A stretch of DNA of 44,207 nt from the NCBI GenBank assembly GCA_030754595.1, contig JASLZZ010000066.1:1-44207 (forward strand), read 5' to 3'. Positions 5,482-31,027 of the stretch are shown piece after piece (position 1 is the first letter of the stretch; every line of letters begins with the position of its first letter). The position numbers and the translations under genes were made by a program. Origin of the DNA: Nitrospinota bacterium. GTDB lineage: Bacteria; UBA8248. The notes beneath the pieces are model-generated. The model ran no database searches. It was not told where the DNA came from and was given only the letters and a program-made list of their open reading frames with translations.

Positions 5482-5488
5482 GTCCCTC

Positions 5489-6262: not shown

Positions 6263-6274
6263 CGATGCCCCTCC

Positions 6275-7549: not shown

Positions 7550-7558
7550 CCTTCCTCC

Positions 7559-7822
7559 CTATAAATTTACCGGGATCCAGTTGGCCCGGGCTTGTGCGAT
7601 AGCTTCTTTCACGGCGTCTTCGCCTTGGGTGCGAAAAACCCCGTGGGGAACCGAATAAAACGGGTTGCGGAACATCGCTAGAATCTCTTCATCCGACTCA
7701 CCCATCCGCATGAATTCCTCGGCCAGACAGCGGGCCATCTCGGATTCCATCTCACCATCCTCGGGCATGGGCATGGAGATAAGCTCCATCGGATCTTCGT
7801 GATCGAATTCATCCTTTGGCAT
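7559..7822 (-). CDS. Small acidic hypothetical protein between nxrA and nxrB
   Basis: 87 aa, 4 nt from nxrA and 9 nt from nxrB; EDPMEL and LAEEFMRMG...MFRNPFY segments look protein-like. Confidence 0.8.
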   Translation of the reverse strand: MPKDEFDHEDPMELISMPMPEDGEMESEMARCLAEEFMRMGESDEEILAMFRNPFYSVPHGVFRTQGEDAVKEAIAQARANWIPVNL

Positions 7823-7826
7823 CTCT

Positions 7827-10800
7827 TCATCCCCTCTTCACTTTGACGGTGCCCTGGAGGTAGCTCTGCATGAACTTGTTTTCGTTGCCGACCGAAAAAC
7901 CGGTCGTGGCGGGCGCCCAGACGCCCCGTCCTCCCAAGCCGCCGTCTTCGGCCTTGGTGAGTTTGACCAGGGTCTCCTTGGGAACGGTGTTGATGGCGTG
8001 GTTGTCGGCCTCGCCGCCCAGCATGAAGCCCATGAAAACCTTCTTTTTATGGAAAAGGTTGTCGAGCTGGTGCATGGGCATGAGCCAGCCGCGCGTGATC
8101 GACTGGTGGGAACCATAGCGGTAGCTCGCCTGGTAGCCCGTGTCAGCGGATACCGCGCGGCCGTCCTTTCGCGTTTCGTGCCCCTTGACGCTCTTTTCCG
8201 TGGCGCACCAAGCGCCGTGCTTGATCATCACCACGTCGTAGGGGTAGGAGGGGTTGTATTTCACCCGCAGCATCAAGCGCGCCACCTTGTAGAATGGATC
8301 ACTCGGCTTCCAGCCGATGTAGGGCCGATCCGCCGGGTTGGCGTCCACGTAAACGTAATCGCCTTCATTGAAACCCAGGTCCTTCGCGGCCTCGGGGTTC
8401 ATCTGCACCTGGTTCTCGCCCACCCCGGGCTGGCGACGATCCATGCGGTAGGGGTCGCCGAAGCTGGTCGACCAGATGAAGTTCCAGTCAGTCACCTGCC
8501 ACGATGAGTGGGTTAAATGCCGGCTCTTCGGGGTGAGACAGAAGAACCGGTAGCCGGCCTCCCATAGCGGGTTCTTCGTATCCTTGGCCTCCTTCCAGGG
8601 AAGCTTGATGTTGCGGACCTGGCGCTCGTCCCAGCCCATGTGGTTTTCCGGGATGCCGTAGTCCTCGGGCCTGATGAAGGGACTCGAACTGATGATGACG
8701 TTCGGCAGATAGGGCGTTCCCTCCGGGCCCTCGCGTTGGACGATGAGGTTCTCCCCGTATTCGATGACCCCGGGCTCGTCGTTATAGGCCTGGAGCCTTC
8801 CGGTCGGAGAATAGAAGGGAACCGACTCCTCGATCTGCTCTAGGAAAGGAACGCGCGGATAGGAGCGGAAGAGCATCAAGGCGGTGCCGGATTCTCCGTA
8901 TTTACCCGCCATGATATCGTCGTATTTATAACCACGGGTCGGGGTCGACGAATCCAGCAGGCGCTGGATGTATACCTCGGCCTTTTTGTCTAGGGCGAAT
9001 TTCCAGTATTTCTCGAAGCGTTTGTCCTTGAGAATCTCTCCCAACTTCTTGGCCATCTCGGCCATGATGAGAATGTCATCCTTGGTATCGTAGATGGGCT
9101 TCACGCCCCCCTTCCAGATCTGGAGGAAGGGGTTCGAGCACGACCCCGTAATCTCGGGCTGCTCGAATTCCATCCAGGTGTTCGCCGGAAGGAGAATATC
9201 CGAGTATTCGGCAGTGGAGGTCATCTCGATTTCCGAGCAGATGATCATCTCAATTTTCGGATTTACGTTCTTGACCATTTCATAAAGCCATTTGGCGTTG
9301 TTGAAGATGTTCACGTTCGTAAACCAAAGAGACTTCGTTGGGGAGGGCATATGGGTTTTGCCGGTGAAGACCTTGCGCCCATATTTCGGGGTATCCACGA
9401 CAAGAGGCTTGTCGCCGTAGTTCCAATATGCGGGCTCTTCGTCCTTGATGGTGCCCCGCACCTTGATGTTTTTTCCGTCCGCCTTCGGGTCGAGATTGGG
9501 ATTGAAGGGATCCTCCGCAATCCAGCCCTTGAAGCCGGGGCCGCTCCAATCCGAACCCTGGAACAGGGCTGCCTTGTAGTTTCCCGCCCAAGTATGGCAA
9601 CCCGCGCCGAGTTTACCGATGTTCCCCGTAAGGGTCATGGGAAGATACTGGGCCCGGTTGGTCATGGTCGCGTGGAACCAGTGGTTGACTCCTTCGCCCA
9701 CATGCAGGGCGGCGGGCTTGATCGTCGCCACGTCCTTGGCGAATCGCTCAATAAGATCTTTTGGCGAATGGGTAATCTCGTGGACGGTGTCGAGATCGTA
9801 GTCCTTGAGATGGTGGGACTTATACATTTCAAAAACCGGCATCACCTCGATTTCCACGCCGCTCACCAGCTTGACTGTGTATTTGCCTTCAAGAGACGGG
9901 TCAAGATTTTTCGCGCCAATGTGCTTACCCACATCGTCGCGCGTGATGGGCGCCGGCGCATTCTTTCCCTTGTCCCAGATCATGAAGTCGCCCGCGGCAT
10001 CGCGATATTTCGGGGTGAGCCCATGGATTTTAAATGAGGGTCCGCCTGAAATGTCCTGATTCTTGTAGCCGGGAATCACATCCTGAGGCCTAAGCCGCCG
10101 CAGGTTGTCAGTGCGGACAAGAAGCGGAAAATCTGTGAATTCCTTGACGAATTTCGCGTCATACCATCCCCGATCGATGAGAATTTTCGTCACACCAAGG
10201 AGAAGGGCTGTGTCAGTCTGCGGACGGATAGGAATCCAATAGTCGGCCTTCGTCGCCGGCGGGCTGTATTCGGGCGCAACAACGATGATCTTTGCTCCCC
10301 GCTCCATCGACTCCATAAAGAAATGGGAATCGGGACGCTTATTCTCGACGAGATTTTTTCCCATGTGGATATGAAGCTTCGAGTTGCGCAAATCGTTGAA
10401 ATCGCAATCCGATGCCTGAAGACCATGAACGAAAGGATGCCCCGGCGCCTGATCGCCGTGCCATGTGTAATTCGACCAGGCGCGACCGCCGCGGGCCTTC
10501 TTGGGCCCGACGCCCCGGGTGTGGGTGTCAAGGAGTGACATGGTGTTGGCGAACCGGTACATGCCGTACTTGCCGATGACGCCGAGCAGGCCCATGCCGC
10601 CCCGGAATTTCATCGTCCGCGTGCCGGCCCCGTCCCAATGGGTCAGCGACGCCGGATCGTAGCCCTGGTCGAGAAGACGTTTTTTACCCGCATCGCCGCT
10701 GTAGGTCTTCGATATCTGAATGAATCCCTTGGAAGCATAAGTGAAGGCATCGTCCCATTTCACGCGGACGAAAGTATCGGTGCCGCGCGAGTCGAACTTG

Positions 10801-11270
10801 TATTTTTTCTTGTTCGCCTCGTTGAGCTCCGGGAAACCGTCGTCGGCCCACCTTTTCCACCCGCGCCGGACCATCGGGTAGCGAAGACGGTAGGGTCCGT
10901 ACATGCGCCGCTGGAAGGTGAATCCGTTGGGGCATCCCCTGGGGTTCCAGTGATGGGTGGCCTTGACACCGTAGATGTCGGTGATGCGGTGCTTGTCGTA
11001 GTTCTGCTCGGTGCGCAGAACGATGCCGTTGCGGGTGAAGGCCTTGAGGCGGCATTCGTGAGTGCAGTTGGGCGAACAGACCCAGGTGAACGATCCATCC
11101 ACCTTGTACTGGTCCCGGTAGACTTTTTCCCATCCGCGGTTCGGGTAGTTCGTGAGAGGGTTCCCCATTTCACCGGTGGGGTGCAAGGCCGCTAGCGCGA
11201 GGCCCCTGCCGCTCCATGCGAGTAACCCGCTGCCGCTCGCGGCAAGAAACTTGCGTCTGGATAATTTCAT
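7827..11270 (-). CDS. nxrA: Nitrite oxidoreductase/nitrate reductase alpha subunit (Mo-bis-PGD, DMSO reductase type II), Tat-exported
   Basis: RBS GGAGG before ATG 11270; Tat motif SRRKFL; 1147 aa. YPNRGWEKVYRDQY, WVCSPNCTHEC...WNPRGC, GAGTRTMKFRGGMGLLG, WSNYTWHGDQAPGHP (Asp Mo ligand) and DNHAINTVPKETLVK are all characteristic of periplasmic NXR. Confidence 0.95.
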   Translation of the reverse strand: MKLSRRKFLAASGSGLLAWSGRGLALAALHPTGEMGNPLTNYPNRGWEKVYRDQYKVDGSFTWVCSPNCTHECRLKAFTRNGIVLRTEQNYDKHRITDIYGVKATHHWNPRGCPNGFTFQRRMYGPYRLRYPMVRRGWKRWADDGFPELNEANKKKYKFDSRGTDTFVRVKWDDAFTYASKGFIQISKTYSGDAGKKRLLDQGYDPASLTHWDGAGTRTMKFRGGMGLLGVIGKYGMYRFANTMSLLDTHTRGVGPKKARGGRAWSNYTWHGDQAPGHPFVHGLQASDCDFNDLRNSKLHIHMGKNLVENKRPDSHFFMESMERGAKIIVVAPEYSPPATKADYWIPIRPQTDTALLLGVTKILIDRGWYDAKFVKEFTDFPLLVRTDNLRRLRPQDVIPGYKNQDISGGPSFKIHGLTPKYRDAAGDFMIWDKGKNAPAPITRDDVGKHIGAKNLDPSLEGKYTVKLVSGVEIEVMPVFEMYKSHHLKDYDLDTVHEITHSPKDLIERFAKDVATIKPAALHVGEGVNHWFHATMTNRAQYLPMTLTGNIGKLGAGCHTWAGNYKAALFQGSDWSGPGFKGWIAEDPFNPNLDPKADGKNIKVRGTIKDEEPAYWNYGDKPLVVDTPKYGRKVFTGKTHMPSPTKSLWFTNVNIFNNAKWLYEMVKNVNPKIEMIICSEIEMTSTAEYSDILLPANTWMEFEQPEITGSCSNPFLQIWKGGVKPIYDTKDDILIMAEMAKKLGEILKDKRFEKYWKFALDKKAEVYIQRLLDSSTPTRGYKYDDIMAGKYGESGTALMLFRSYPRVPFLEQIEESVPFYSPTGRLQAYNDEPGVIEYGENLIVQREGPEGTPYLPNVIISSSPFIRPEDYGIPENHMGWDERQVRNIKLPWKEAKDTKNPLWEAGYRFFCLTPKSRHLTHSSWQVTDWNFIWSTSFGDPYRMDRRQPGVGENQVQMNPEAAKDLGFNEGDYVYVDANPADRPYIGWKPSDPFYKVARLMLRVKYNPSYPYDVVMIKHGAWCATEKSVKGHETRKDGRAVSADTGYQASYRYGSHQSITRGWLMPMHQLDNLFHKKKVFMGFMLGGEADNHAINTVPKETLVKLTKAEDGGLGGRGVWAPATTGFSVGNENKFMQSYLQGTVKVKRG

Positions 11271-11312
11271 TTCAGATATCCTCCATACCTGAGCCACAAA
11301 AAATGTTGAGGT

Positions 11313-16835: not shown

Positions 16836-18118
16836 CTATCGCCCGGCAGGCGCTCTCTCGTCCCCGAATCGAAAGGCAAACCACGCCAGGAGGGACGACA
16901 AAACGACGAAGACGATACAACCCAGCGCAATCGACTCCATCGTTACGCCCCTATCGATACACAACCCATCGTGACGGGAGCAAGCGCCGTGGCTAACACC
17001 ATGAACGAAGTCGCCATGGCCCGAATACCCCCCAGATGGGCGACGCCATAGATCTCCGCCCAGATGGCCCCGCCGATGGTGACGCGCAGCCCCACCGTCG
17101 CGCCGCTCGCCAGCATGTAAATTAAGGCGGCCCCCGGATGATCGGAACTCGCGATGGCCAACATCGATACCCCTTGCGGTATCAAATAGTAGGGCAAGAG
17201 CATCACCGCCCCGACCCGATCGACGAGCGACCCCGTGAGCAGCGATACGCCGCTGATGACCACCACATAAAGGAAATAAGCTTCCGTGAAATTCGTCAGG
17301 CTCCATCCCTTTGATTCGACGAGGTGGGCCATGTGGAAGAAAAAGCCTGTCGAGATGTAGGAGGGGGCGAGCATCACCGGAAGAATGAGGTAGAAGCGAG
17401 GATCTTTCAAAACCTCCCTGCTTGACCAGCTGGGCGCCGCTCTCAACTCCGGAGAAATTCGCTCGGCGGCCCTCTCGACAAATCTTCGGTACCGCTCTTT
17501 GTGCCCCCGGAGCAAAAAGAGGGCGAGGGGAACGACCCCCGCGGCGACCAGCGCCGCAAACGCTGCCCAGGTCCACCGCCAGCCCACCGATCTCGAGATT
17601 GCCAGCGCCGCAATCGCCAGAAGCCCTTGACCCAGTGGGCTTCCGACAGAGACCAGACTCACCGCTTTGCCTCGGGCCTCGTCGAAATAGCGCGCCATGG
17701 TGGTGGCCGATGTGTGAACCATGAGGCCTTGTCCCGTGAGACGGATCGCAAACAGGGCAAACAAGAGAAAGAAGGTGGTAGGCACCGCAGCCATGAACAG
17801 GCACGCGCAAACGAGCCCCCCCAGCACCGCCAGGGTATAGCTGCGGAGATCGGCCCGGTCGATCATGCGCCCGAACCAGATCAGGCAAAGGGCGCTGCCC
17901 ACGGTGGCGATTGCGAAGACCATGCCGAATTCGCCGTGGGAGAGGCCAAACTGGGCCCGGATGTCCGGATTAAAGACCGATATAACGTAGGTCTGGCCAA
18001 AGCCGGAAAAAAACGAGAGAAGAAAACCAAAGGCAAGGAACCGAAAGTTGCCAATGACGAACCCAAGATAGTTCAAATCGGTCCCTGTGCTCCTCAAAAT
18101 ATAATTCTGTCTGTGCAT
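16836..18118 (-). pseudogene. MFS transporter with a 1-nt frameshift near 16965 before the last transmembrane helix
   Basis: FFSGFGQTY and GRMIDRADLR (MFS motif A). The main frame ends APVTMGCVSIGA*, while another frame continues LCIDRGVTMESIALGCIVFVVLSSLLAWFAF to the stop at 16836. Confidence 0.8.
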
Positions 18119-18159: not shown

Positions 18160-19089
18160 CTATGAAGCATACTTGCCAGCGAGTTGTGGTGTGAACCTTC
18201 CGCCGAGTCCCTTTTCCGCATGCTCAAGCCGGGTATCCCGCGACCAGGTGCGCTTCAGATCATCCCTGACATGAAAACTCAGCCGGCCCAGCCCTTCGGT
18301 CTCCAGTTCGATCAGATCGCCATCCTGAAAAGAGTGAAGTCAGCGGTGATTGGTTCCGGTCGCCAGAACGTCGCCGGGCTCGAGCGGATGGATTGAACTC
18401 ACCCATTCGATGCATCGCTCGATGCCGTACGTCATGTCGTTGGTATTGAAGTCCTGCTTGAGCGCACCGTTGTTCCAGAGCCAAATCTGCAGGTGATGCG
18501 GATTGGGCATCTCATCGGCGGTCACCAGGTAGGGTCCCAAGGGGGCGAAGGTCTCGCGCGATTTCATCTGATAGAAGGTATTTACGGCGGGCGGTAGGCC
18601 GCGCGCCGAACCGTCGACGAAGTTGGTGTACCCGAACACATGCTCCATGGCCTTCTCGGCGCTGACATGATTCGCCCGCTTTCCGATGACCACGGCGACT
18701 TCGCCCTCGCCCTCGAAGATGGCCGCCGGAACGTCAGGCAAAACCTTGCTATCGCCATTTCCGATTATAGACCCGGGCGATTCGTGGAAGGCGTTGATCG
18801 GAGCCGGGTCCTCCCTCGTGCCGTCTTCCATGTAGTTAAGCGCCATGCAGTCGATATTGATCGTCCTGGGCAAAGGCGGGCGAATCCTGACACCTGAAAT
18901 CGGCGCGCCGCCATCCCCTGCCCCGGCATCCTCCAGACGCTCTCTATGGTCATCGAAGCGCTCAATCAGCCCGCTGATCAGATCGTGTGGTCCCGTATGC
19001 GGAATGTCCCGCACCTGAGATGAAACGTCGACCACATTTTCCCCGCTGAGCACCCCGAGCCGGAATTCGTCAAAATAAAATAGCTTCAT
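18160..19089 (-). pseudogene. Fumarylacetoacetate hydrolase family protein with an in-frame TGA at 18340-18342
   Basis: FEGEGEVAVVIGK, VFGYTNFVDGSAR, KSRETFAPLGP, LEPGDVLATGT. The frame continues NHR*LHSFQDGDLIELETEGLGRL...GKYAS to a TAG at 18160. Confidence 0.82.
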
Positions 19090-19261
19090 AGTCTTCCCTC
19101 AAGAATGATACCGCATCGTTCACGGTGAGCTGCTAATACTGCGAATTTCAGCCTCAACCATGGGACCTGAAAAATTGCAGGCGATCGCGTTGTGTTTTCC
19201 TTCCGGACTCAGGACCTTGACTTCGTTTCAGACATGAACGGAAAAGTTTGGAATTTCCCTT

Positions 19262-19666
19262 TTACGTGAGTTCCCGGAGTTTTCTTTTCAGATGCCGGGT
19301 AATTTCCTCGGCATCTTCCGCATCGTTATGGTCCTGGTCGAGAGAGCCATCCCCGGCCGGGCTTTTTACCGTGAACATAACCACTTCATCCAGGATAATC
19401 CCGCCGTGTTTGGTATTTCTCGGAACGTGGGCGAGATCACCGGGACCCAGGAGCCTCTCTTCCTCTCCCACAATCATGATCTGCTTTCCTTCCAAAATCA
19501 GGAGAAACTGCTCTTCGTTCGGGTGAAAGTGCGGCCTCGACAGTTTCCCGGTCGGATAGGTCACAAATCCCACCTTCATCAACTCGCCCGCCAATCCCTT
19601 GAATTTTCCCATGGGTTGCGCGGCCACGTGAGACTCTTCCATTTCCGACATTTTATAGAAAGGCAC
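19262..19666 (-). CDS. Cupin domain protein
   Basis: PHFHPNEEQFLLILEG and GDLAHVPRNTKH cupin motifs. Confidence 0.88.
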   Translation of the reverse strand: MPFYKMSEMEESHVAAQPMGKFKGLAGELMKVGFVTYPTGKLSRPHFHPNEEQFLLILEGKQIMIVGEEERLLGPGDLAHVPRNTKHGGIILDEVVMFTVKSPAGDGSLDQDHNDAEDAEEITRHLKRKLRELT

Positions 19667-19781
19667 TTTTCCCCCTCCAAGGAATATTCCGATTTCGGAT
19701 AGACATGCGAAAGAAAAGAATTGAGGCGCGACGAGTGCTCGGGAAGGACATCTCCTGGATTTGCCTCTTGCCGGAGGAGAG

Positions 19782-21086
19782 CTATATTTTCTCTTCCGAC
19801 TCCAGCGCGGCCAACGCCTGTTGCACCAACTGACAGCGCAGCTTCTTTTCTTCTTCCGGCGACAAGGTCGGATCGCCTGTGACGTTAACGATCCCGTGTC
19901 CGAGGATGACCCGGGTGGAACCTATCATCTTGGCGATTGGCATGGCCGACGTCACCTGCACCACAGGGATTCCGGCCTTCTCCAACTCCGTCGTAATCGC
20001 AGCGCCGCTGCGGGTGCTGGTGCCTCACGTCGAAGTGAGGATGACGGCGTCTACGCCTTCTTCCTTGACCTTCTCCACCATCTCTTTGCCCATTCTGCGC
20101 GTGTTGGATAGAGGATTCCCAAGTCCCGATGTCGAAATAAACTCGTTATGCAACTCGCCGATAGCCCCTTCTTTCTCAAGTTCACGCAAGGCATCCAGGG
20201 GCACTAGCCGGTGGGGGTCTTCTTTAACGAACTTCGGATCGTAGCCACCGTGCGATATCTCATAGTCCTCGCTCTTCAAATCGTCGAGACCTTCCAGGTT
20301 ATAAGTCCCCCACCTCGTAGCGGCCATCCCTTCGATATTATCCGGATTGCCCTTGGGAACGAGTCCGCCATCGGTAATCACCATGACCTTGGCGTTCGAG
20401 ATGTCCTTGACGGCAACAGGCATGAGGATTGGTTCGAAGGAAGTCGATACCATTTCCGACTCAAACGGCTCGCCCTTTACCTTGGCCAAGAGCATATCCA
20501 CCAATCGCCTGCCCGCCGTTTGCTCCACGAATTCGTCGCGAATCAGTCCCCTGATTAGGTAGCCTTCCTCGGAGGGCGAACCGATTTTTTCGTTGTTCAT
20601 CATCTTCTTGCTCAGGTCCGCCATCTTTACCATGACGCCGCGCATCTCGGCTGCCTGACGGCCAGAGTCGATGATGTACAATGATTCGCGGTACAGGTCC
20701 GTACCGGGGTTTTCCTCGCTCATTCCCGTTACCACCGGGATCCCAAGCTCCGACTGGACGGCGGCGCAAATAGCCCCGGCGGCCATTCCGTAGCGTCCCG
20801 CCTCGAAACATGGGCCAGCCACGAAAAGCTCGGCCCGGGCTTTCTTCACCTCATCCACGACGGAGGCAACCACCTCATCTTGATGCTCAACAGCATGGTT
20901 GTCGCCGCATATAAATGTGGTGACAATTTCAGCGCCCTCGCCCATCATTTGCTCAAGCAGGAGGCCCGGCCCTACCGCGCCGGCTCTCTCTTCAAGCGGA
21001 GACCCGGCGGCTTCCTCTCCGCCGACCCCGCCAAAGAACTGATTGACGTAGTGTACGATTCGCAACTTGACCCCCCCCTCCTTCAC
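19782..21086 (-). CDS. grdB: Glycine/betaine/sarcosine reductase selenoprotein B-like; Sec encoded by TGA 20025-20027
   Basis: IVHYVNQFFGG, GPCFEAGRYG, TDGGLVPKGNPD, HGGYD, DAVILTST-UGA-GTSTRSG...ELEKAGIPVV. ORFs 20025-21086 and 19782-19985 are in one frame, and the TGA is at the conserved Sec position. Confidence 0.9.
19998..20012 (-). promoter_or_regulatory. Candidate bacterial SECIS hairpin
   Basis: mRNA UGA + 12 nt + CGCAGC-GGC-GCUGCG: perfect 6-bp stem with a G-starting loop 18 nt from the UGA. Confidence 0.6.
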
Positions 21087-21106
21087 TCCCGATCGCCGAA
21101 TTCGCC

Positions 21107-22387
21107 TTAATATATTACGGCCCGCAGGCGCGTTGCGCCCTGCTGGTTGAGAATGCCCACGATACTAGCGGCTCCGATCTCCTGAGACATCGCCAGCGCC
21201 TCGGTCAGGTCCGGGTGGCCCGCGACGACGCGCTCCGCGCGTGGAACCTTCCATATGGTATCGACTCCGCCACAATATACTATCGCGTCAACATCGGGAA
21301 AATTGAACAGCAGAGCCGATTCGATCCGCCGGTCTTTCGCCATATCCGACACCATGACCGCCGTGCGTATCCCCGCGCCTTCCAGCAGATTCGCGGTAAT
21401 CGCCATATCCGAATGCGGCACGCCTCCGCCGAATTTGGTAAGAACCGCGGCATCGGGTTTCAGGCTCCATTTGGCGAGGTTGGCCGCGGCCTGGCAATTT
21501 CGGTCGCGATCTTCGTTGTCGGAGCCGGCTATCGTCGCCACGGTCCCGACGAAGCTCAACTCTCCCGCTTCATGGCGCCGGTAGAGGTCAGTGATTACCG
21601 GATGGTTTTGATAGAAGTAGGTCTCCGCGCCGCCGAGAGACAGTGTATAGGATGGCACGATAGCCCCGTCCAACCACTCGTCGGGATGGAGCAGGAGAGG
21701 CATCATGCCGTTCGTGTTGGCGCCGTAGATGACCTGTTCGTCTATCTCCGGCGATCGCTGGCGAGAGAATATTTGCCCGACATAGGCCACCCGCGGCAGC
21801 CCTTCGCGCCCCTCCACCATGGGGCCAACAGCGTCAAAGGTCGTGGTTTCGGCGGACGTCTCACCCATCGCGGCTTGAGCCAGATAGACCACCGCTTTCA
21901 TTCCCGCGCGGCGAGTCGCGTTGAGCTTGATGTGCGTAGCCAATTCCGGACGCGCGTGCGGCGCCACGATGAAATGTTGAAGCGACGAATAAGGCGACCA
22001 CTCGCCGGCGGGACCGCTCATCTCCAAAACGCGGCCGACCCGCCCCTCCGTATCCGCCACGGACCCCTCGATCAACACCGTCACCGCCGCTCCTTCAAGA
22101 ACGTGGGTCGTTCCCGTTCCGGCGGTGGCGGGCGTGTTCAGGATGCCGGGAAAGTCAGGGCTCGAGCCGGGCTCCTTCGCCCGAGGTTCGATGATGTCGA
22201 ATACGGGACCGACTCGGCAGTTCTCACCGGCGCGGACAGTCTCCAGGTCTACGCTCTGAAGACGGTCATCGGCCAGAAGCAGGGCCCTCAACTCCTCGGC
22301 ATCGACGAGAAGGGATGTCCCGTCCAAGCGCGTTTTATCGCCAAAATTAATTTCCGTGACGGGATGACGGGCAAGAGTCAATTGCAT
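21107..22387 (-). CDS. Glycine/sarcosine/betaine reductase component B proprotein (GrdE/GrdI-like)
   Basis: DIIEPRAK..FPG, GTGTTHVLEG, LLHPDEWLDGAIV, YQNHPVI..LY.RH, DAAVLTKFGGGVPHSD; 20 nt upstream of grdB. Confidence 0.82.
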   Translation of the reverse strand: MQLTLARHPVTEINFGDKTRLDGTSLLVDAEELRALLLADDRLQSVDLETVRAGENCRVGPVFDIIEPRAKEPGSSPDFPGILNTPATAGTGTTHVLEGAAVTVLIEGSVADTEGRVGRVLEMSGPAGEWSPYSSLQHFIVAPHARPELATHIKLNATRRAGMKAVVYLAQAAMGETSAETTTFDAVGPMVEGREGLPRVAYVGQIFSRQRSPEIDEQVIYGANTNGMMPLLLHPDEWLDGAIVPSYTLSLGGAETYFYQNHPVITDLYRRHEAGELSFVGTVATIAGSDNEDRDRNCQAAANLAKWSLKPDAAVLTKFGGGVPHSDMAITANLLEGAGIRTAVMVSDMAKDRRIESALLFNFPDVDAIVYCGGVDTIWKVPRAERVVAGHPDLTEALAMSQEIGAASIVGILNQQGATRLRAVIY

Positions 22388-22453
22388 GATTTCTTCCCTT
22401 TTCGCTCGTTAAATTTTTACCCGGTTCCAGGCCGGCCGCGGACCGATACAGCT

Positions 22454-23968
22454 TCAGGATGTCTGAATCGGTAAAGACATGTACGCACCCAGCGCGCGTC
22501 CGTACGCGGCGGCATAGACTCCGTATGGAGTGAAATCCTCCGTAAATGCGCCCAAGGCCCAAAGGGCCGCTTTTCGGTATTTCCGTTCCCCGGCGGAGTC
22601 CGCGAGACGCAAGAAAAGCATTGCCGCAATTCCGTTTTCCGCCAGCAGCGTGAGCGGGTATCGCAGGTGCGCCATCCCCTCGCGGCTGATGTCATGGAAG
22701 CCACCGAAAGGATTCGTCTGCGCGTCGAGTATCTCATCTCCAAGCTGTGCCGCGCGCTCCAGATACCCGGCTTCCCTGGTAGCTCCATAGGCGTCAAGCA
22801 GTGCGATCCCCGTATAAATCTGATCAACAAGAAGGCCGGGAACGTGGGGCTCGCCATCGTGATAATGGCGCATGCCGCCACCGGCAGCGCGGCAATGGTT
22901 CCAAAGAAACTCCAACGCGCCTAGCGCGCGATCCCTGCAATCGGGTCTCCCGAGAATCCGCGACGCCTCGAGATACGACGATACCGCCTGGGCATTGGCA
23001 TCCGTATAAACCAACTCATCGACAACCGAAAAAGTTTTTTGGGAATTGTACACTGGTTCCCCGTTTCTAATTATCAGAACGTGGAGATAGTCCTGGCACC
23101 CAAAGAAAGCGGATCCGGAGGGACCGGACAGCGCCCCGTCAACGTAGCCGATTACCTCCTCCGCCAATTGCCGGTACTCGGCCCGCTGGGTGAGTTGGAA
23201 GACACGCAGGCAATTGCCAAGTATTCCCGCTTGATCGGCGAGCAGCTTCTCGCGGTGAGGCTCGCTCCAATCGGCTTTGGAGGAATACCGAAAGAATCCC
23301 CCGTCTTCGTTATCGTACGTCTCGCTCGCGCGCATCGCGCTCAGCGTTCGCGCAACGTGATCGAGAAAGGCGGCATCTCCCGTCGTCTCGTAGCGGTAAA
23401 TCAAAAAATCGTTGGCCTCCGGATGAGGAAACTTGTGGTCGGGTCCGTATCCACCGTTCACCTCATCCGAAAGCGCCATCAAGGCGTTCGATATTTCGAA
23501 TACGGCGGATGCCCGAATTTTTGCTTCCGGGGCCGCGGCAGAGGCTTCCAGATTGACAGGCGGTGCGGATTCAAGAAACTCGCCCTTCTTCTCCTGGCAG
23601 GCCGCCTGAATGCGAACCAGCACGCTGCAAAAATCCTCGGCCGGCAGGTGGTTCACGGTTGCTACCCGGTCTCCTTGGGGAGTCATGAAGACGATGGTCG
23701 GCCAGCCGTTCTGGTTGTAGCGGACGTCGATGTCCGGGCGCTGCGCGTTCTCGACACGTATCGGAACGAAGTAGGCGTTCAGCAGAACGATGACCTCGTC
23801 GTCCGAGAATGAAGTCTCGTCCATGCTCTGGCAGAATCCGCACCAGAAAGCGCCCAAATAGAGCATCACCAGCTTGTCTTGGTCCCGGGCTTTTTGAAAG
23901 GCCTCCGGCCCCCACTCAAGCCAATTGATGAGGTGCGCCCTGTTCTGATTCGGGGAGAAGCGGATCAT
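22454..23968 (-). CDS. DUF255/YyaL (SSP411-like) thioredoxin-domain protein with a helical barrel
   Basis: INWLEWGPEAFQKA..DK, WCGFCQSMDETSFSD, RPDID..Y..GWPT, GGYG..HKFP, GGFFRYS...W..PHREKLLADQA. Confidence 0.88.
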   Translation of the reverse strand: MIRFSPNQNRAHLINWLEWGPEAFQKARDQDKLVMLYLGAFWCGFCQSMDETSFSDDEVIVLLNAYFVPIRVENAQRPDIDVRYNQNGWPTIVFMTPQGDRVATVNHLPAEDFCSVLVRIQAACQEKKGEFLESAPPVNLEASAAAPEAKIRASAVFEISNALMALSDEVNGGYGPDHKFPHPEANDFLIYRYETTGDAAFLDHVARTLSAMRASETYDNEDGGFFRYSSKADWSEPHREKLLADQAGILGNCLRVFQLTQRAEYRQLAEEVIGYVDGALSGPSGSAFFGCQDYLHVLIIRNGEPVYNSQKTFSVVDELVYTDANAQAVSSYLEASRILGRPDCRDRALGALEFLWNHCRAAGGGMRHYHDGEPHVPGLLVDQIYTGIALLDAYGATREAGYLERAAQLGDEILDAQTNPFGGFHDISREGMAHLRYPLTLLAENGIAAMLFLRLADSAGERKYRKAALWALGAFTEDFTPYGVYAAAYGRALGAYMSLPIQTS

Positions 23969-23975
23969 GCTATTT

Positions 23976-24204
23976 TTCGCTCCGAAAGTATTGAATTCCC
24001 CATATATTCATAGCCCCTACAATATACGATCAAAACAATTCAGGCTCATCGGTTCCCCGGGTGGCGAGCGGAACCATTTCAACCCTCTCCGAGCCGGTAT
24101 ATCTTTTTTGTGATGTGCATGACAGATCAAGCCACGGTTAAACTCGATCAATCGGCCTCGTCAAACCATTTATTTCATGGGAAATCCGATTTATGCGGAG
24201 CGCA
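23976..24204. repeat. Full, degenerate copy of the ~220-bp inverted-repeat-bounded element
   Basis: The ends ttcgctccgaaagtattgaattccccat and atgggaaatccgatttatgcggagcgca are imperfect inverted repeats. The interior shares ATGTGCATGACA, GCCAC and ACTCGATCAATCG colinearly with 39754-39972. Confidence 0.75.
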
Positions 24205-24219
24205 ATCCAAAAGTAAGGT

Positions 24220-25872
24220 TTAGCGGGATAAACCGGCGGCCCTGTCTTTTTCCAGCTTTCTTAAAGCCCCTCTTTGGATTTTTCCGGTGGGAGTTAGCGG
24301 GAGTTCTTCCATGAACTCCACCCCACGCGGATATTTATAAGGAGCCAGTTGAGATTTCACGAATTCCTGGAGCTCCCGGACCGTATCATCCAGCGGCTCT
24401 TCGTTTTCCGACAAAATCACGAACGCCTTTACGATTTCACCCCGCAGGGAATCCGGCGAACCGACCACGGCGCAGTCGCGGACCCGGGGATGCTCAAGCA
24501 AGACGGCCTCGACCTCAAGGCCGGACACGTTGTAGCCCCCGGTGTTGATCATGTCATCCGTGCGCGCCTCGAAAGAAACATACCCTTCCTCGTCGATACG
24601 GCAGAGGTCTCCCGTCATATTCCACCCATCGCGGACATAATTCCGCTGCCGATCGAGATCGTCCAAGTACCGGCAGCCCGTCGGCCCCTTCACGATCATC
24701 TGCCCCACTTCGCCGGGCGGCGAATCCTCCATCGCATCGTCCACCACGCGAACCCGGTAGCCTGGAACGGCTTTTCCGATCGTTCCGGGCCGAATGTCTT
24801 TTCCGCCCGCTGAAATGAAGATGTGCAGCAACTCGGAAATCCCCAGGCCGTTGATGATTTCCACCCCGGTTTTTTCTTTCCACCCGTTGAAAACCGCCAG
24901 GGCCAACGGCTCGCCTCCCGCGATGCAGACGCGGAGGCTGCGCAAGTCGTAATCTCCCGCGATGCCGAGCATCTGCTTATAACCGGAGGGGGTGCTGAAA
25001 CAGATCGTGGCCTTATATCTATCGATGGTTTCAAGGAGGGTCTTGGGCGTTGCCCGCTCGACCAACACCGCAGAGCCTCCGAATCTCAGCGTATCGGTGA
25101 TGAACGCGCAAAATCCGTACAAAAAAGCGATCTGAGGACTTCCGCAAACAATGTCTTCCGGCCGGATCCCAAACAAATGCCCGGGAAAGGTATCCGCCGC
25201 CGCGATTAAATCCCGGTGAAAGTGGACCGTGCCCTTCGGGGTGCCGGTGGACCCCGAGGTAAATCCTATCAAAGCGACATCGTCCGCCGATACGTCCGCA
25301 TTCCCGAAAGATTCCGCGCTGTTAGCCATCAAGGATTCCAGCCCGCCGAGGCTCCCATCGCCAAAGCATAATATTTTTTTCAGGGAATCCACCTTCTTTC
25401 CCGCGTTTTTCAAATCCCCGGCCAACCGGACGTCGCAGATGGCGTACTGAACCTTCGCCTTTTCGAGGACATAGGCGAGCTCTCGTTCCCTCAACACCGG
25501 CATCGCGGGAATCACAATCCCGCCCGCCTTTAAAACGCCCAGGCAGGCGGCAACCAGCATCGGATGGTTCGGGGAGCGGAGCAGCACCCGCATCCCCGGA
25601 ACAAAACCGAACTCGCCGGTGATCAGCGAGGCGATTTGATTGGCGTTCGCCAGTAGATCCGCATAAGTCCAGAGGGTATCGCCGAAATGAACCGCCGGGC
25701 GGCTGGCCTGCGGGCCCTTGGCCATCCCGTCGATCAGCTCCACGCCCGCGTTCATTCGCGGCGGATAAGCGGCCAACTCGGGAAGCGCCCCGTAGTCCAT
25801 CTCCGGCCAATACTTTTCGGGCGCAAGATGGTCCCGCACGAATGTATCCACATGTCCGGTCGGCTCTTTCAT
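24220..25872 (-). CDS. Aryl-CoA ligase, 2-aminobenzoate-CoA ligase-like (ANL family)
   Basis: GHVDTFVRDHLAP N-terminus, FTSGSTGTPKGTVHFHRD, NGLGISELLHIFIS, KGPTGCRYL, GWNMTGD, APYKYPR, TGKIQR. Confidence 0.85.
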   Translation of the reverse strand: MKEPTGHVDTFVRDHLAPEKYWPEMDYGALPELAAYPPRMNAGVELIDGMAKGPQASRPAVHFGDTLWTYADLLANANQIASLITGEFGFVPGMRVLLRSPNHPMLVAACLGVLKAGGIVIPAMPVLRERELAYVLEKAKVQYAICDVRLAGDLKNAGKKVDSLKKILCFGDGSLGGLESLMANSAESFGNADVSADDVALIGFTSGSTGTPKGTVHFHRDLIAAADTFPGHLFGIRPEDIVCGSPQIAFLYGFCAFITDTLRFGGSAVLVERATPKTLLETIDRYKATICFSTPSGYKQMLGIAGDYDLRSLRVCIAGGEPLALAVFNGWKEKTGVEIINGLGISELLHIFISAGGKDIRPGTIGKAVPGYRVRVVDDAMEDSPPGEVGQMIVKGPTGCRYLDDLDRQRNYVRDGWNMTGDLCRIDEEGYVSFEARTDDMINTGGYNVSGLEVEAVLLEHPRVRDCAVVGSPDSLRGEIVKAFVILSENEEPLDDTVRELQEFVKSQLAPYKYPRGVEFMEELPLTPTGKIQRGALRKLEKDRAAGLSR

Positions 25873-26845: not shown

Positions 26846-28912
26846 CTATCCCGAAACTTTCAGATGGAGATGGCGGCTGTCGTCCACGGTCGCCATCCAG
26901 CCAGGAGGCACAAGAGTGACGGCCCCGTATTCTTCCACAACCGCCGATCCCTGGATTTCACTGTCCGCCGGAATCAAATCGCGTTGATAGACGCGGCAAT
27001 CCGGGACGGGTTCCGAGAAATGGACAAGGCGCGATTCCAACAAGGCCGCCTCCAGGCCATCGTTGGCCGCGGATGATTCCGCCCGCGGGGGCTTATCGAC
27101 CCACGGGGGCTTATCGACCGCCCCGATTACACGCACGCGGAGGGTTACTATTTCCGCCGGGTCATCGGGGTGACAATGCCCGTAGCGCTCCTCATAGCGG
27201 ACATGAAAATCCCTCTCCAAAGTTTCGAGCCAATCTCCGGATTCAGACACGGGAATCGTTAATTCGAATGCCTGCCCCGAATAGCGGACATCCGCGTAAC
27301 GGAGGCAGCAAAGGTCCTTCAGTCCGGCGGAGCGCAGCTGAGCCGCCGGACGGGAAATTAACTCATCGAAAATACGCTCGATAGAGGGGGCGCCCGCCTT
27401 GTCAAAGCCGACGATATGCGTCCTGATATTTTCCTGTACAACATCCGCCAGCAGCAAACCGAGGGCGGAAAAATTCCCCGGAAATCGGGGGACGATGACG
27501 TGCGTGATGGATAGATGCCCGGCTATGAGAGCGGCATGGAGCGGACCCGCCCCCCCGTAAGCGACCAATACATGCTCCCTGGGATCGAATCCTCGCTCGA
27601 TCGAAATCTCCCGAATGGAACTGACCATCTTCGCCACGGCGATATCGACTACCCCACGCGCCATGGAAACCGTATCGTCCATTCCCACGCTCCGGGCCAA
27701 ATCCTCCAATACTTTTTCCGCCCTACCGGGACGAAGCTTCATTTTCCCCGCCATCAGGGTACGTGGACCGATGCGGGATAACACCAGATTCGCATCCGTC
27801 ACCGTCGGCTCGACGCCGCCAAAATCATAGCAGGCCGGGCCCGGACGGGAACCCGCGCTCTTCGGACCCACATTCAGCACGCCGTCCTCGTCGCGCCATG
27901 CGATACTTCCTCCGCCCGCTCCCACTGTGTTGATTTGAAGTTGGGAGGCGTTTAACGGAAACGAGGCGACCATGTTATTTCGGCTCACGATTGGCTGACG
28001 ATCACGGACGAGACATACGTCCGTACTCGTTCCGCCCATGTCGTAGGTAATGAGGTGATCCAATCCCAGTTCCTCCGCCAGCGCGACACTCCCCACCACC
28101 CCTCCCGCCGGTCCCGAAAGTATCGTCTGGACGGGAAAGAGCAAGGCCCTTTTTGCATCCAGCATTCCGCCACTCGAAGCCATGATGAAAAAAGAAGACC
28201 GATATTTTTTATTTTGAAGCGCCGTGTTCAAGCGGGCGACATAATCCCTAATCTTGGGTCCGAGATAGGCGTTGATGACCGTCGTCGAAAAACGCTCGTA
28301 TTCCCGGTACTCGGGAACCACTTCGTGCGAAAGAGAGGTGAATAATTCGGGCAGCTTCCGGCGGAGATTCTCGGCGGTCTTGCTCTCGTTGTCTCCATTC
28401 GCGTAGGCGTGCAGATAACAAACCGCAACGGCCTGAACGCCGAGCTCCCGCAGACGTTCGGCCTGCCGAAGGATTTCATCATCTTGAACCGCGATTTCAA
28501 CGCTGCCATCGGCCAGGATGCGCTCGGCAACCTCGAAACGAAGTTCACGAGGAACAAGCGGCTTGGGCCGGATAAATTTCGAATCGAATAGGCTCTGCGG
28601 AACCAGGCGTTGCGTTCGGCCGATTTCGAGAACATCACGGAAACCCGATGTGGTCAATAGGGCCGTTCGCGCACCCGTATTCTCGAGAAGCGCGTTGGTT
28701 CCCACGGTTGTCCCGTGTGTGATTCTGCCGACCGATGCGATGTCGAAATCCAGACTCCCGAGAGCCTCGAGAAATACTTCGTCCTCTCTCCCTCGAACGG
28801 TAAGAAATTTCGCCACCTTCATCGCTCCCTCGTTCTCGTCATAGAAAACGAGATCCGTAAAGGTTCCTCCTGTGTCGATCCCAACGAGATGCAAGGCGGG
28901 GCTATCCTCCAA
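26846..28912 (-). CDS. Hydantoinase A/5-oxoprolinase family ATP-binding subunit
   Basis: GIDTGGTFTD, HGTTVGTNALLE, EYREYER, SGPAGG, DMGGTSTDV, GAGGGSIA, GPKSAGSRPGPACY, PTVTDAN. Confidence 0.93.
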   Translation of the reverse strand: MEDSPALHLVGIDTGGTFTDLVFYDENEGAMKVAKFLTVRGREDEVFLEALGSLDFDIASVGRITHGTTVGTNALLENTGARTALLTTSGFRDVLEIGRTQRLVPQSLFDSKFIRPKPLVPRELRFEVAERILADGSVEIAVQDDEILRQAERLRELGVQAVAVCYLHAYANGDNESKTAENLRRKLPELFTSLSHEVVPEYREYERFSTTVINAYLGPKIRDYVARLNTALQNKKYRSSFFIMASSGGMLDAKRALLFPVQTILSGPAGGVVGSVALAEELGLDHLITYDMGGTSTDVCLVRDRQPIVSRNNMVASFPLNASQLQINTVGAGGGSIAWRDEDGVLNVGPKSAGSRPGPACYDFGGVEPTVTDANLVLSRIGPRTLMAGKMKLRPGRAEKVLEDLARSVGMDDTVSMARGVVDIAVAKMVSSIREISIERGFDPREHVLVAYGGAGPLHAALIAGHLSITHVIVPRFPGNFSALGLLLADVVQENIRTHIVGFDKAGAPSIERIFDELISRPAAQLRSAGLKDLCCLRYADVRYSGQAFELTIPVSESGDWLETLERDFHVRYEERYGHCHPDDPAEIVTLRVRVIGAVDKPPWVDKPPRAESSAANDGLEAALLESRLVHFSEPVPDCRVYQRDLIPADSEIQGSAVVEEYGAVTLVPPGWMATVDDSRHLHLKVSG

Positions 28913-28966
28913 TATTCACCTGTCGGATAATGGAAAAATCCTTTTGAATCGGCCAGGCGAAGGGCA

Positions 28967-30988
28967 TCAAATCCCGAGCGGAACGAGAAAAACCTCTTCT
29001 CCCGGTTTCACGCCGATAATGGCCATCCCCAGAGAATCCAGGCCCAGCGATCCCGGGGCCATTTCAGAGTCCATCTCAATCCAGGCGCGTAGAGGCGCCC
29101 CCATTTTTCCACCGACTTCAACCAGGGCGCCTAGCGCAAGGGTCATATGCTCAGCGCTTTCCGGATGCACATGGAACAGGCGGCGAGAGTTCTTGCTGTG
29201 TGTTGTCTTTTTTTGAACGGCCTTCAGCGAATTCTTGTTCATCCGGATGGTGCGGCGAAGCGAAAGAGTCTGTTCTTCGTCCACGCCGGAATCCCCGATG
29301 AAAACGCCATAATTCCGGCGGGCGCCTTCTTCCGATACGTAGCCGGCCATCGTATCTCTCAGGACCTGTCCGGAATCCCTGTCAAGGGGGTCACCGAAAC
29401 CGCCACCTCCCGAAGTTTCGATAACGACGACATCTCCCCGAAGCAGGCGGAAACCCGCCGCCTTGCCGGGCGTTTCGGAGGGAGGGAGCGTTTCCCCGTT
29501 CCTTTCGACGACAAACCGGTTCGGGCTTCCCGGGCCGCCCCCGAATACCCCGAAGGGAGGAATCATATTTTTATCCGATGATATCGAGAGAAGCGCATTG
29601 TCGGCCAGAACTTCCACCTCGCGGCGCAGCCCCAGCCCCCCCCGGCGCAGTCCGGCGCCCCCCGAGTCCTCTCGGAGGGAAACCTTCCTCAGCCTCAAGG
29701 GGTGGATGTGCTCAATCACCTCGATCGATTGAATGGATGCGAAATCTCCTTCCGTGAAATTCCTGGTGGCGCTGTTGCCGTCGTGCTCCTCGAATCCTCC
29801 CGTTCCGCCGGCCGGAAACTCATAAAAAAGAAAAGGCTTACCGGATTGAGGATCGTTTCCGCCGATATAAATATGGTTCGATGTGCCCTTCAAGTCGCCC
29901 GTCACCGAATTCGGCGCTAATCGGCCGACGGCGCCTATCAAGGCCGACACAATCGCGTGGCTTACCTCCATAGAACCGGCGCAACTCGCCGGGTAGCGCG
30001 CGGCAAGGAGGGAACCGGGCTCGGTAACGATTCCGAGAGGACGAAACGCCCCTTGATTGATCGCGCCTTTAGGATCCAGAAACGCCTTGATGACGCTGAA
30101 AGCCGCCGAGGGGGCCATCGCAGGGCCAACGTTATAGGCGCCCTCGTTCTGCGCGTCGGTTCCGCTGAAATCGACATCCAACTCATCTCTCGATATCGTC
30201 ACCTTTACCCGGATGCGTACGGGATCGAGCGAGTGACCGTCATGGTCCATAAAATGCTCGAAGGCGGATTCGCCGTCGGGCACGGCTGCGATGCGGCGGC
30301 GCATGGAGGTCTCGGCCCGATCGAGCAGACGTTGCTTGGCGGCGAGAACGAGCCCCCACCCGTATTTACCGGCCAGCTCTTCGAGCCGAAGATGGGCCGT
30401 GTGACAGGTCGCCAGCATCGCGAAAAAATCGCCCCGCCGCTCATCGGGAACGCGCATGTTGTGAAACAGAAGATCGACTATGCCTCGATTCAACTCCCCG
30501 CGTTCGAACACTTTCAGGATGGGAATGCGTATTCCGTCGTGCAGAATTTCCGTGTTCTTCCCCGAAATGCTGCCCGGCGTCGTCCCGCCGACATCTCCCC
30601 AATGCGCGCGAACGACGGGATAGATCGTCATCTCGCCGCCGCCAAAGAGGGGTGAAATCATCGCCACGTCGTTCAGATGCGTACCGCCGGTATACGGATC
30701 GTTATGTAAAAACACGTCGCCCGGATGGATTTCATCGCCGAACCGCTTGAGCATCTCCCCGACTTCCATCGGAACCGGGAAGATGTGTACCGGATTGTCC
30801 TCGGCCATGGCCACGAGCTGGCCCTCGCCATCCACCAGGACGCAGGAGAAATCATGGCCTTCGTAGATGATGGACGAATAGGCAGTCCGCACCATGTTGG
30901 CCCGCATTTCGCGCACGATGGCGACGAACGACTCGTTCAGCACCTCGAGTGTGATGGGGTCAATCTCACGGTTCGGCTCTTCGGACAT
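28967..30988 (-). CDS. Hydantoinase B/5-oxoprolinase family subunit with a C-terminal extension
   Basis: IDPITLEV, RTAYSSII, PGDVFLHNDPYTGGTHLND, RAHWGDVGG, DSGGAG..RGG, TSGGGGFGDP. Confidence 0.93.
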   Translation of the reverse strand: MSEEPNREIDPITLEVLNESFVAIVREMRANMVRTAYSSIIYEGHDFSCVLVDGEGQLVAMAEDNPVHIFPVPMEVGEMLKRFGDEIHPGDVFLHNDPYTGGTHLNDVAMISPLFGGGEMTIYPVVRAHWGDVGGTTPGSISGKNTEILHDGIRIPILKVFERGELNRGIVDLLFHNMRVPDERRGDFFAMLATCHTAHLRLEELAGKYGWGLVLAAKQRLLDRAETSMRRRIAAVPDGESAFEHFMDHDGHSLDPVRIRVKVTISRDELDVDFSGTDAQNEGAYNVGPAMAPSAAFSVIKAFLDPKGAINQGAFRPLGIVTEPGSLLAARYPASCAGSMEVSHAIVSALIGAVGRLAPNSVTGDLKGTSNHIYIGGNDPQSGKPFLFYEFPAGGTGGFEEHDGNSATRNFTEGDFASIQSIEVIEHIHPLRLRKVSLREDSGGAGLRRGGLGLRREVEVLADNALLSISSDKNMIPPFGVFGGGPGSPNRFVVERNGETLPPSETPGKAAGFRLLRGDVVVIETSGGGGFGDPLDRDSGQVLRDTMAGYVSEEGARRNYGVFIGDSGVDEEQTLSLRRTIRMNKNSLKAVQKKTTHSKNSRRLFHVHPESAEHMTLALGALVEVGGKMGAPLRAWIEMDSEMAPGSLGLDSLGMAIIGVKPGEEVFLVPLGI

Positions 30989-31027
30989 TCGGCCCTCAGA
31001 AGATCGCGTATTTGACAAAGAAAGACT

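Follow-up and report, generated by a model that had tools for sequence, protein, structure and literature searches.

Grd-type selenoenzymes are markers of strictly anaerobic Stickland fermentation. In the glycine reductase of Clostridia (GrdABCDE/TrxAB), protein B is made of GrdB and GrdE, members of the families PF07355 and PF09338; GrdB carries selenocysteine (Sec, U) in the motif UGTCTRCG, and canonical GrdE carries a GN-C-VSA-C site. The pattern UxxCxxC is given as canonical in PMC6778437 (citing Wagner et al. 1999) and in PMC13188914, and the pyruvoyl-forming cysteines of the alpha subunit are, according to PMC10838667, required for the Schiff base with glycine or sarcosine. Two described systems depart from this scheme. 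The alpha subunit of betaine reductase (GrdH/GrdI) has no GN-C cleavage site, which fits a substrate unable to form a Schiff base, and in the fluoroacetate reductase of Synergistota (Cloacibacillus, Pyramidobacter) PMC10838667 describes a FarB without CxxC and a FarE without the two cysteines, 'similar to grdI', and proposes that Far feeds GrdA; joint loss of the CxxC and of the pyruvoyl site is already known from FarB/FarE. Here we describe a three-gene cassette, DUF255-GrdE-GrdB, found in a 44,207-nucleotide (nt) stretch of a Nitrospinota genome (contig JASLZZ010000066.1 of assembly GCA_030754595.1; hereafter the window), whose GrdB-like protein keeps Sec and has serine in place of both cysteines. 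We consider it rather likely that this cassette is the substrate-specific protein B of a glycine-reductase-type system, from a branch that needs neither the pyruvoyl Schiff base nor the post-Sec CxxC.

The three genes all lie on the minus strand, the DUF255 gene being separated by 66 nt from the grdE-like gene and the latter by 20 nt from the grdB-like gene. The elements are as follows (aa, amino acids; SECIS, selenocysteine insertion sequence):

19782-21086, minus strand: grdB-like gene for selenoprotein B (PF07355), 434 aa, Sec at residue 354 in the motif LTSTUGTSTRSGAA
20025-20027, minus strand: in-frame UGA (TGA), almost certainly decoded as Sec (invariant codon; Sec machinery in the genome)
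19998-20012, minus strand: SECIS-type hairpin CGCAGC-GGN-GCUGCG, 15 nt past the UGA, conserved at the codon level
21107-22387, minus strand: grdE-like gene for the alpha subunit, 426 aa, without self-cleavage/pyruvoyl cysteines (PF09338, 257.1 bits)
22454-23968, minus strand: DUF255 (Thioredox_DsbH) thioredoxin-fold protein, 504 aa, with WCxxCQxMDE (PF03190, 94.6 bits)

Both the grdE-like and the grdB-like genes are intact. Under translation table 11 the grdB-like frame ends at the TGA, while read-through as Sec adds 80 codons and yields a single frame of 434 aa, as a first reading made from the letters of the window (the sequence-only reading) had proposed for LTST-U-GTSTRSG. The protein matches the Pfam family GRDB (PF07355) with 455.3 bits (cut-off 22) and falls in the broad selenoprotein-B subfamily of glycine, sarcosine, betaine and proline reductases (NCBIfam TIGR01918, 486.4 bits, cut-off 65.45). 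Compared with clostridial protein B, the pair belongs to the same families and keeps the order grdE-grdB, the Sec at the same ST-U-G position and the hairpin in the same codons. No solved structure matched GrdB by sequence (0 matches at E<=0.01).

We then asked whether the UGA could simply be a stop codon in a split or decaying gene. PMC6778437 regards B components that lack UxxCxxC as likely pseudogenes; gene callers end 120 out of 120 relatives (70-100% identical, among the matches listed) at the UGA, leaving proteins of 333-353 aa; and the hairpin does not stand out by its folding energy. However, the source genome (3.55 Mb in 138 contigs, 96.9% complete, 6.4% contamination) has the full Sec machinery: selB (364.5 bits, cut-off 242.25) and selA (551.8 bits, cut-off 267.9) on the same contig (C113), selD (345 bits) and one tRNA-Sec with anticodon tca. 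The selD gene (C16:24543-25505, L101) itself carries one in-frame TGA and thus probably encodes a Sec-containing SelD.

Moreover, the sequence surrounding the TGA was compared between the window and 54 related loci (55 sequences, 54 of them distinct). L035, whose locus holds two paralogues, L072, which is cut by a contig end, and L074, which has a different motif, were set aside. Results showed that the TGA stands at the same codon in all 54 distinct sequences, and that the hairpin codons +5, +6, +8 and +9 (CGC AGC .. GCT GCG) are nucleotide-identical in 54/54, while the loop codon GGN varies (GGC in the window, giving CGCAGC-GGC-GCUGCG). Flanking residues that are equally invariant mostly show a third-position entropy of about 0.9-1.7 bits, and along the 80 codons past the TGA the protein is conserved with third positions free. 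Over 24 full-length sequences, column identity averages 83%. Paralogues show compensatory two-sided changes of the stem: CGCUGC/GCAGCG in the L035 paralogue and CGUUGC/GCAACG in the Clostridia locus L074. The SECIS-like hairpin pointed out by the sequence-only reading is therefore set apart by synonymous-site conservation, though not by folding energy. In agreement with the presence of selA, selB, selD and tRNA-Sec and with the TGA found in 54/54 sequences, we consider that the UGA is almost certainly a conserved Sec codon, and a stop in a broken gene is hardly credible.

The replacement of the two cysteines is not a peculiarity of this contig. A protein search returned 4836 relatives at E<=1e-20, and scanning species genomes at the DNA level yielded 57 related loci. 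UGTSTRSG is present in 55 of these; the exceptions are L072, truncated ahead of the site, and L074 (40% identical), which reads UGTSTRCG. A maximum-likelihood tree of 35 rows groups the UGTSTRSG proteins in a single clade (support 100/100, stem length 0.65), apart from both the GrdH and the glycine-GrdB clades; the rows nearest to it are two UGSSTRCG proteins. Other paralogues carry intermediate motifs (UGTGTRSG, UGTCSRSG, UGSSTRCG). Both serines have AGY codons, one base from TGY, and the second Ser/Cys position falls within the hairpin stem. The window protein groups with that of the Nitrospinota metagenome-assembled genome (MAG) L063 (about 80% identical) and of 'ODZ_NOB7a' L056 (97%), the latter showing full synteny with the window over 16 kb.

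As labelled in the records, most hosts of the 57 loci belong to Candidatus Binatia; others are Dehalococcoidia/SAR202, Acidobacteriota, Verrucomicrobiota, 'Deltaproteobacteria' and Nitrospinota. Unlike the amino-acid-fermenting Clostridia, these hosts are mostly environmental lineages and not fermenters. The canonical motif STUGTCTRCG, as given in the sequence-only reading, proved correct: it occurs in 12 out of 12 GrdB-family loci of the Clostridia class (201 genomes, the class of a Clostridia MAG); two of the 12 pass the GrdH cut-off, and the two scanned for it pass the glycine GrdB cut-off. The window protein departs from UxxCxxC, and its exchange of both cysteines with retention of Sec is a fixed, conserved variant, neither a singleton nor a pseudogene. 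Judged from these alignments and the tree, the Ser variant is a monophyletic and widespread branch under conservation across several phyla.

The second loss concerns the GrdE-like partner. In place of the canonical GN-C-VSA-C, the window protein has PSYT-LSLGG; among 44 full-length GrdE-like relatives, the two canonical Cys columns hold Y/L and M/L/F/I/V and never Cys (0/44), and no invariant Ser or Thr occupies the cleavage column either. The branch therefore probably dispenses with the pyruvoyl Schiff base.

We also tested whether the pair could be protein B of an ordinary sarcosine or glycine reductase, working in a pathway from creatinine/N-methylhydantoin to sarcosine. The best NCBIfam rows indeed are sarcosine components, GrdF (NF040794) with 508.4 bits for the GrdB-like protein and GrdG (NF040793) with 202.7 bits for the GrdE-like protein, and the window holds hydantoinase A/B, creatininase-family and amidase genes. 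However, these scores are far under the equivalog cut-offs of 800 and 780, the cysteines that form the pyruvoyl group needed for a Schiff base with glycine or sarcosine are missing, and the catabolic neighbours are common to L056 alone, with none in the other 56 loci. In addition, the GrdB-like protein stays below the glycine GrdB model (TIGR01917, 444.3 bits against 602.2), and the glycine-GrdB motif from the Methods of PMC9751293 is found in 0/57 GrdB-like proteins versus 11/16 canonical UGTCTRCG proteins. The GrdF motif of the same Methods is likewise found in 0/57, in a comparison set that held no bona fide GrdF as positive control. For these low scores, the missing pyruvoyl cysteines and the confinement of the neighbours to L056, a role in the creatinine to sarcosine pathway was rejected, and an ordinary sarcosine or glycine B component is improbable.

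Betaine reductase resembles the cassette in its alpha subunit, but GrdH retains UGTCTRCG (L084-L087), forms a separate well-supported clade, and its model is matched by the window protein with only 451.8 bits against 775 (NF040795). As the GrdB-like protein fails the tests for glycine, sarcosine and betaine reductases, a substrate other than glycine is likely.

FarB/FarE shares with the cassette the same double loss of the CxxC and of the pyruvoyl cysteines. The GrdE-like protein reaches only 146.2 bits with the FarE model (NF053623, cut-off 675), and FarB was compared by its published description; unlike Far, the window pair has no radical-SAM farC beside it (no radical-SAM gene was found among the scanned ORFs, open reading frames, of the window), its conserved neighbour is DUF255 instead, and GrdD is absent. 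The cassette thus differs from FarACEB both in the FarE equivalog score and in the lack of an adjacent radical-SAM FarC.

The sequence-only reading had called the pair an orphan, as it saw no grdA, grdC, grdD or trxAB in the window. For the window itself this partly stood, since no GrdA or GrdC homologue (tblastn, E<=1e-3) and no classical trxA or trxB (29 ORFs scanned) was found; a thioredoxin-fold CxxC protein, the DUF255 protein, is nevertheless encoded directly upstream of the grdE-like gene. At the level of the genome the claim does not survive. Whole-genome searches gave GrdA and GrdC matches only on contigs other than the window: grdA at C18:16411-16848 (201.8 bits, one TGA, with CFVU as its CxxU) and grdC at C71:2825-4261 (582 bits, cut-off 450). 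The grdA gene opens a second Grd locus, grdA-grdE-grdB (C18:13623-16869, L015), whose GrdE is 28% identical to that of the window and also without the GN-C site, and whose GrdB is 39% identical, with the motif LPATUGTGTRSG in which Gly and Ser replace the two Cys. The picture is therefore a mixed one for the earlier reading: the Sec machinery is present and the Ser variants are not singletons, yet grdA and grdC exist elsewhere in the genome, grdD being absent from it. Compared with clostridial glycine reductase, GrdA (CxxU) and GrdC are shared, but the grdE-grdB pair is not split by grdA.

The separation of grdC and grdA in this genome has a likely explanation. An IS5 transposase gene follows grdC (C71:4308-5387), and the end of contig C18, 160 nt upstream of grdA, is the terminal 141 bp of the same insertion sequence (IS) family (C18:16891-17031), suggesting that an IS probably inserted between the two genes. 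The same IS stands at the ends of more than 20 contigs of this genome, being multi-copy and breaking the assembly, and in the two closest relatives grdC lies next to grdA. The arrangement in this genome is thus likely grdC-[IS5]-grdA-grdE2-grdB2.

The association with GrdA and GrdC extends to the relatives. Among 50 genomes with UGTSTRSG-type GrdB, which carry 1 to 20 GrdB-family genes each, GrdA is found in 48 (always with one TGA, one fragment excepted) and GrdC also in 48, in 43 cases over the cut-off; the two genomes without GrdA are the same two without GrdC. In 4 of the 57 loci (L028, L030, L035, L068), the genes grdC-grdA-grdE-grdB are contiguous, with a B component of the UGTSTRSG type. 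In two genomes, G213 (a chromosome-level record) and G003, the UGTSTRSG type is the sole GrdB-family gene and stands inside a grdC-grdA-grdE-grdB operon, with DUF255 divergent; these single-gene operons are the strongest tie of this B type to GrdA/GrdC. The idea of a chemistry outside the Grd system thus finds no support. In the phylum of the window, GrdA is present in 35/51 genomes and 11/15 genera, and the UGTSTRSG-type signature in 3/51 genomes, all of one genus; common GrdA with a rare B of this type fits an extra B module acquired onto a resident GrdA/GrdC core.

Considering these results, the GrdE-like/GrdB-like pair probably feeds the cell's own GrdA and GrdC, and the double cysteine loss is best read as pointing to a substrate that reacts without a Schiff base, as betaine or the substrate of Far does. 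In a mechanism modelled on the glycine, betaine and fluoroacetate reductases, the Sec354 selenolate would attack the alpha-carbon of X-CH2-COO- and displace a group that can leave without imine activation, candidates being a quaternary ammonium or sulfonium such as in betaine, or a halide, so that the product would be a carboxymethyl-selenoether. The carboxymethyl group would be handed to the Sec of GrdA (encoded on C18), whose Cys would resolve the intermediate into an acetyl thioester on GrdC (encoded on C71) and a Se-S bond in GrdA, and a thiol-disulfide protein would then re-reduce GrdA. As GrdD is absent, the pathway probably does not end with acetyl phosphate as in the textbook scheme.

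Several points weigh against assigning the cassette to a GrdA/GrdC-dependent protein B. First, it is not beside grdA or grdC in the window and in 53 of the 57 loci, and most of the genomes concerned have other GrdB paralogues, which could alone explain the co-occurrence with GrdA and GrdC; the direct ties are limited to the four adjacent operons and to the two genomes with a single GrdB-family gene. Second, GrdD was found neither in the source genome (best match 22.9 bits, cut-off 350, in a 96.9% complete MAG) nor in the genomes of the relatives (0/50), whereas the Clostridia control was positive (516.2 bits). The GrdC of GrdD-less genomes (L018:2825-4261, L102, L104) ends about 27-30 residues before the two canonical GrdC (L098, L099); it retains two invariant Cys and an APTQGHI motif. 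Third, the DNA past the UGA folds no better than shuffles (z = +1.37, 186/200 shuffles folding at least as well), as is also the case for the C18 paralogue (z = +0.14), and Rfam returned over 19600-24300 two chance-level rows and no SECIS family; folding energy and Rfam being uninformative, the case for a SECIS rests on conservation. Fourth, none of the recurrent neighbours across loci names a substrate. Finally, the case for this clade is made from sequence comparison.

The DUF255 protein offers a possible source of the missing thiols. A DUF255 homologue stands beside the pair in 31 of the 57 loci, several others being too short to tell, and the motif WCxxCQxMDE, in the form WC(G/R/A)xCQ, is found in 26/26 sequences spanning the site, with C43, C46 and C291 invariant in 24/24. 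Its best solved relative is 7tkv_A (E 4.2e-29, residues 10-285); it also matches 3ira_A. Like other DUF255/Thioredox_DsbH proteins (YyaL-type, PDB 7tkv), it has an N-terminal thioredoxin fold with CxxC; unlike 7tkv_A, it has 504 aa instead of 668, the motif is WC(G/R/A)xCQ and its gene is tied to a Grd-type selenoenzyme pair. To our knowledge, neither the DUF255 protein nor 7tkv has an assigned function. Most likely, its CxxC would supply in trans either the re-reduction of GrdA or a protection of the GrdB Sec for which the lost CxxC had served in cis. In about 14 loci with sufficient upstream DNA the pair has no DUF255 neighbour, so DUF255 is not obligatory in cis.

The same gene order could be explained by a self-contained selenoenzyme, made of the pair and DUF255, working without GrdA and GrdC on the different Sec-dependent C-N or C-S cleavage proposed by the sequence-only reading; the CxxC of DUF255 would resolve a selenoether or selenenyl intermediate. 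This fits the fact that the conserved unit comprises no more than three genes, DUF255-GrdE-GrdB (31 of 57 loci), that the CxxC, the pyruvoyl site and GrdD are all lost together, and that the cassette is mostly distant from grdC-grdA; in G002, for example, the pair lies at 0.32 Mb and grdC-grdA at 4.33 Mb without an adjacent B component, and there the co-occurrence of GrdA and GrdC could come from other paralogues. On the contrary, a self-contained enzyme would account poorly for the two genomes whose sole GrdB lies within grdC-grdA-grdE-grdB, for GrdA and GrdC being each in 48/50 genomes, and for the loci without a DUF255 neighbour. We therefore regard it as unlikely and retain a protein B that feeds GrdA and GrdC.

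A broader proposal goes beyond this protein B, namely that DUF255-GrdE-GrdB is the substrate module of a distinct GrdD- and pyruvoyl-free selenoenzyme system in mostly non-fermenting bacteria (Binatia, SAR202/Dehalococcoidia, Acidobacteriota and one marine nitrite-oxidiser-type Nitrospinota genus), in which the CxxC would have relocated to a thioredoxin-fold partner, the substrate would be a new onium- or halo-acetate, and the acetyl group would leave GrdC without acetyl phosphate. We put it forward as a tentative possibility; if true, it would mean an unrecognised reductive electron sink, or osmolyte harvesting, in a nitrite oxidiser of oxygen-poor water. In any case, a stripped Grd form, without CxxC, pyruvoyl site and GrdD, is conserved under selection across several environmental phyla. 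For annotation, it follows that the absence of UxxCxxC must not be equated with 'pseudogene', and that callers routinely cut these genes at the UGA. Finding the substrate would add a further reaction that reductively cleaves a C-X bond, perhaps in an abundant osmolyte or organohalide, would reveal the real need for the post-Sec cysteines and for GrdD, and would provide the first function for a DUF255 thioredoxin-domain protein.

A literature search found nothing on the UGTSTRSG clade, its link with DUF255 or the absence of GrdD among the matches listed, in a coverage that leaves subscription journals outside, nor any article among those listed that links grd terms to Binatota, Nitrospin*, SAR202 or Dehalococcoidia; the words glycine, betaine, sarcosine and selen* do not occur in the Binatota genome paper PMC8262859. 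In PMC1088965, GrdA and GrdB are each represented by single sequences in the Sargasso Sea selenoproteome.

The genes around the cassette were also considered for the window and across the loci. In the window, the following catabolic genes are present:

26846-31018: hydantoinase/oxoprolinase A and B
37969-39366: amidase
40133-40903: creatininase-family gene

The hydantoinase, amidase and creatininase-family genes suggest N-heterocycle or creatinine-type catabolism. These genes, as well as the cupin, FAH and MFS genes of the window, are in synteny with L056 (97%) only and with none of the other 56 loci. The MFS gene at 16943-18118, three genes downstream of the cassette and considered here because FarACEB has an adjacent MFS gene, farA, shows only a weak similarity to oxalate/formate antiporters (37.6 bits of 335). 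The families that recur beside the cassette are, out of 57 loci, luciferase-like monooxygenase (19), GSDH (15), NMT1-type binding protein (12) and isochorismatase (11). Some lineages lack them, their recurrence may come from common descent of the Binatia loci, and the window has only a luciferase-like monooxygenase gene of them.

We also looked for signs of expression. Scanning 19000-24400 for promoter and terminator consensus sequences gave no useful signal (5 sites resembling promoters versus 2.8 expected; 11 resembling terminators versus 6.0). Short metatranscriptome contigs from 4 runs in 4 studies match the grdB-like, grdE-like and DUF255 genes with 0-1 differences, for example at 19775-19970, 19804-19992, 22161-22343 and 22969-23239; they come without a silent-stretch control, DNA carry-over being possible, and none bridges the UGA with 31 letters on each side.

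Elsewhere in the window, four clustered genes on the minus strand at 3922-11297 encode a molybdopterin oxidoreductase of 1156 aa, a 4Fe-4S dicluster subunit of 424 aa and two cytochrome-c proteins, of which one has an EB_dh domain. We take this cluster to resemble the nitrite-oxidoreductase (NxrABC) type, which would agree with the nearest relatives being labelled Nitrospinota and 'NOB'. The source genome further encodes three short PrdB-like GRDB-domain proteins with an in-frame TGA, at C108:7080-7460 (UPLCIRSG), C109:5419-5820 (UPLCVRSG) and C94:27955-28335 (UGLCNRSV); PrdB-like selenoproteins are described as abundant in the Sargasso Sea in PMC1088965. In G213, the single-operon Binatia genome, a gene for a radical-SAM protein with DUF3641 (L104:4680-5642) lies about 1 kb past grdB on the opposite strand. 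A very large expansion of B components was observed in G249, the genome of L071, an 8.3-Mb groundwater MAG: besides two GrdA genes it carries 20 of the GrdB family, all of them with a single TGA.

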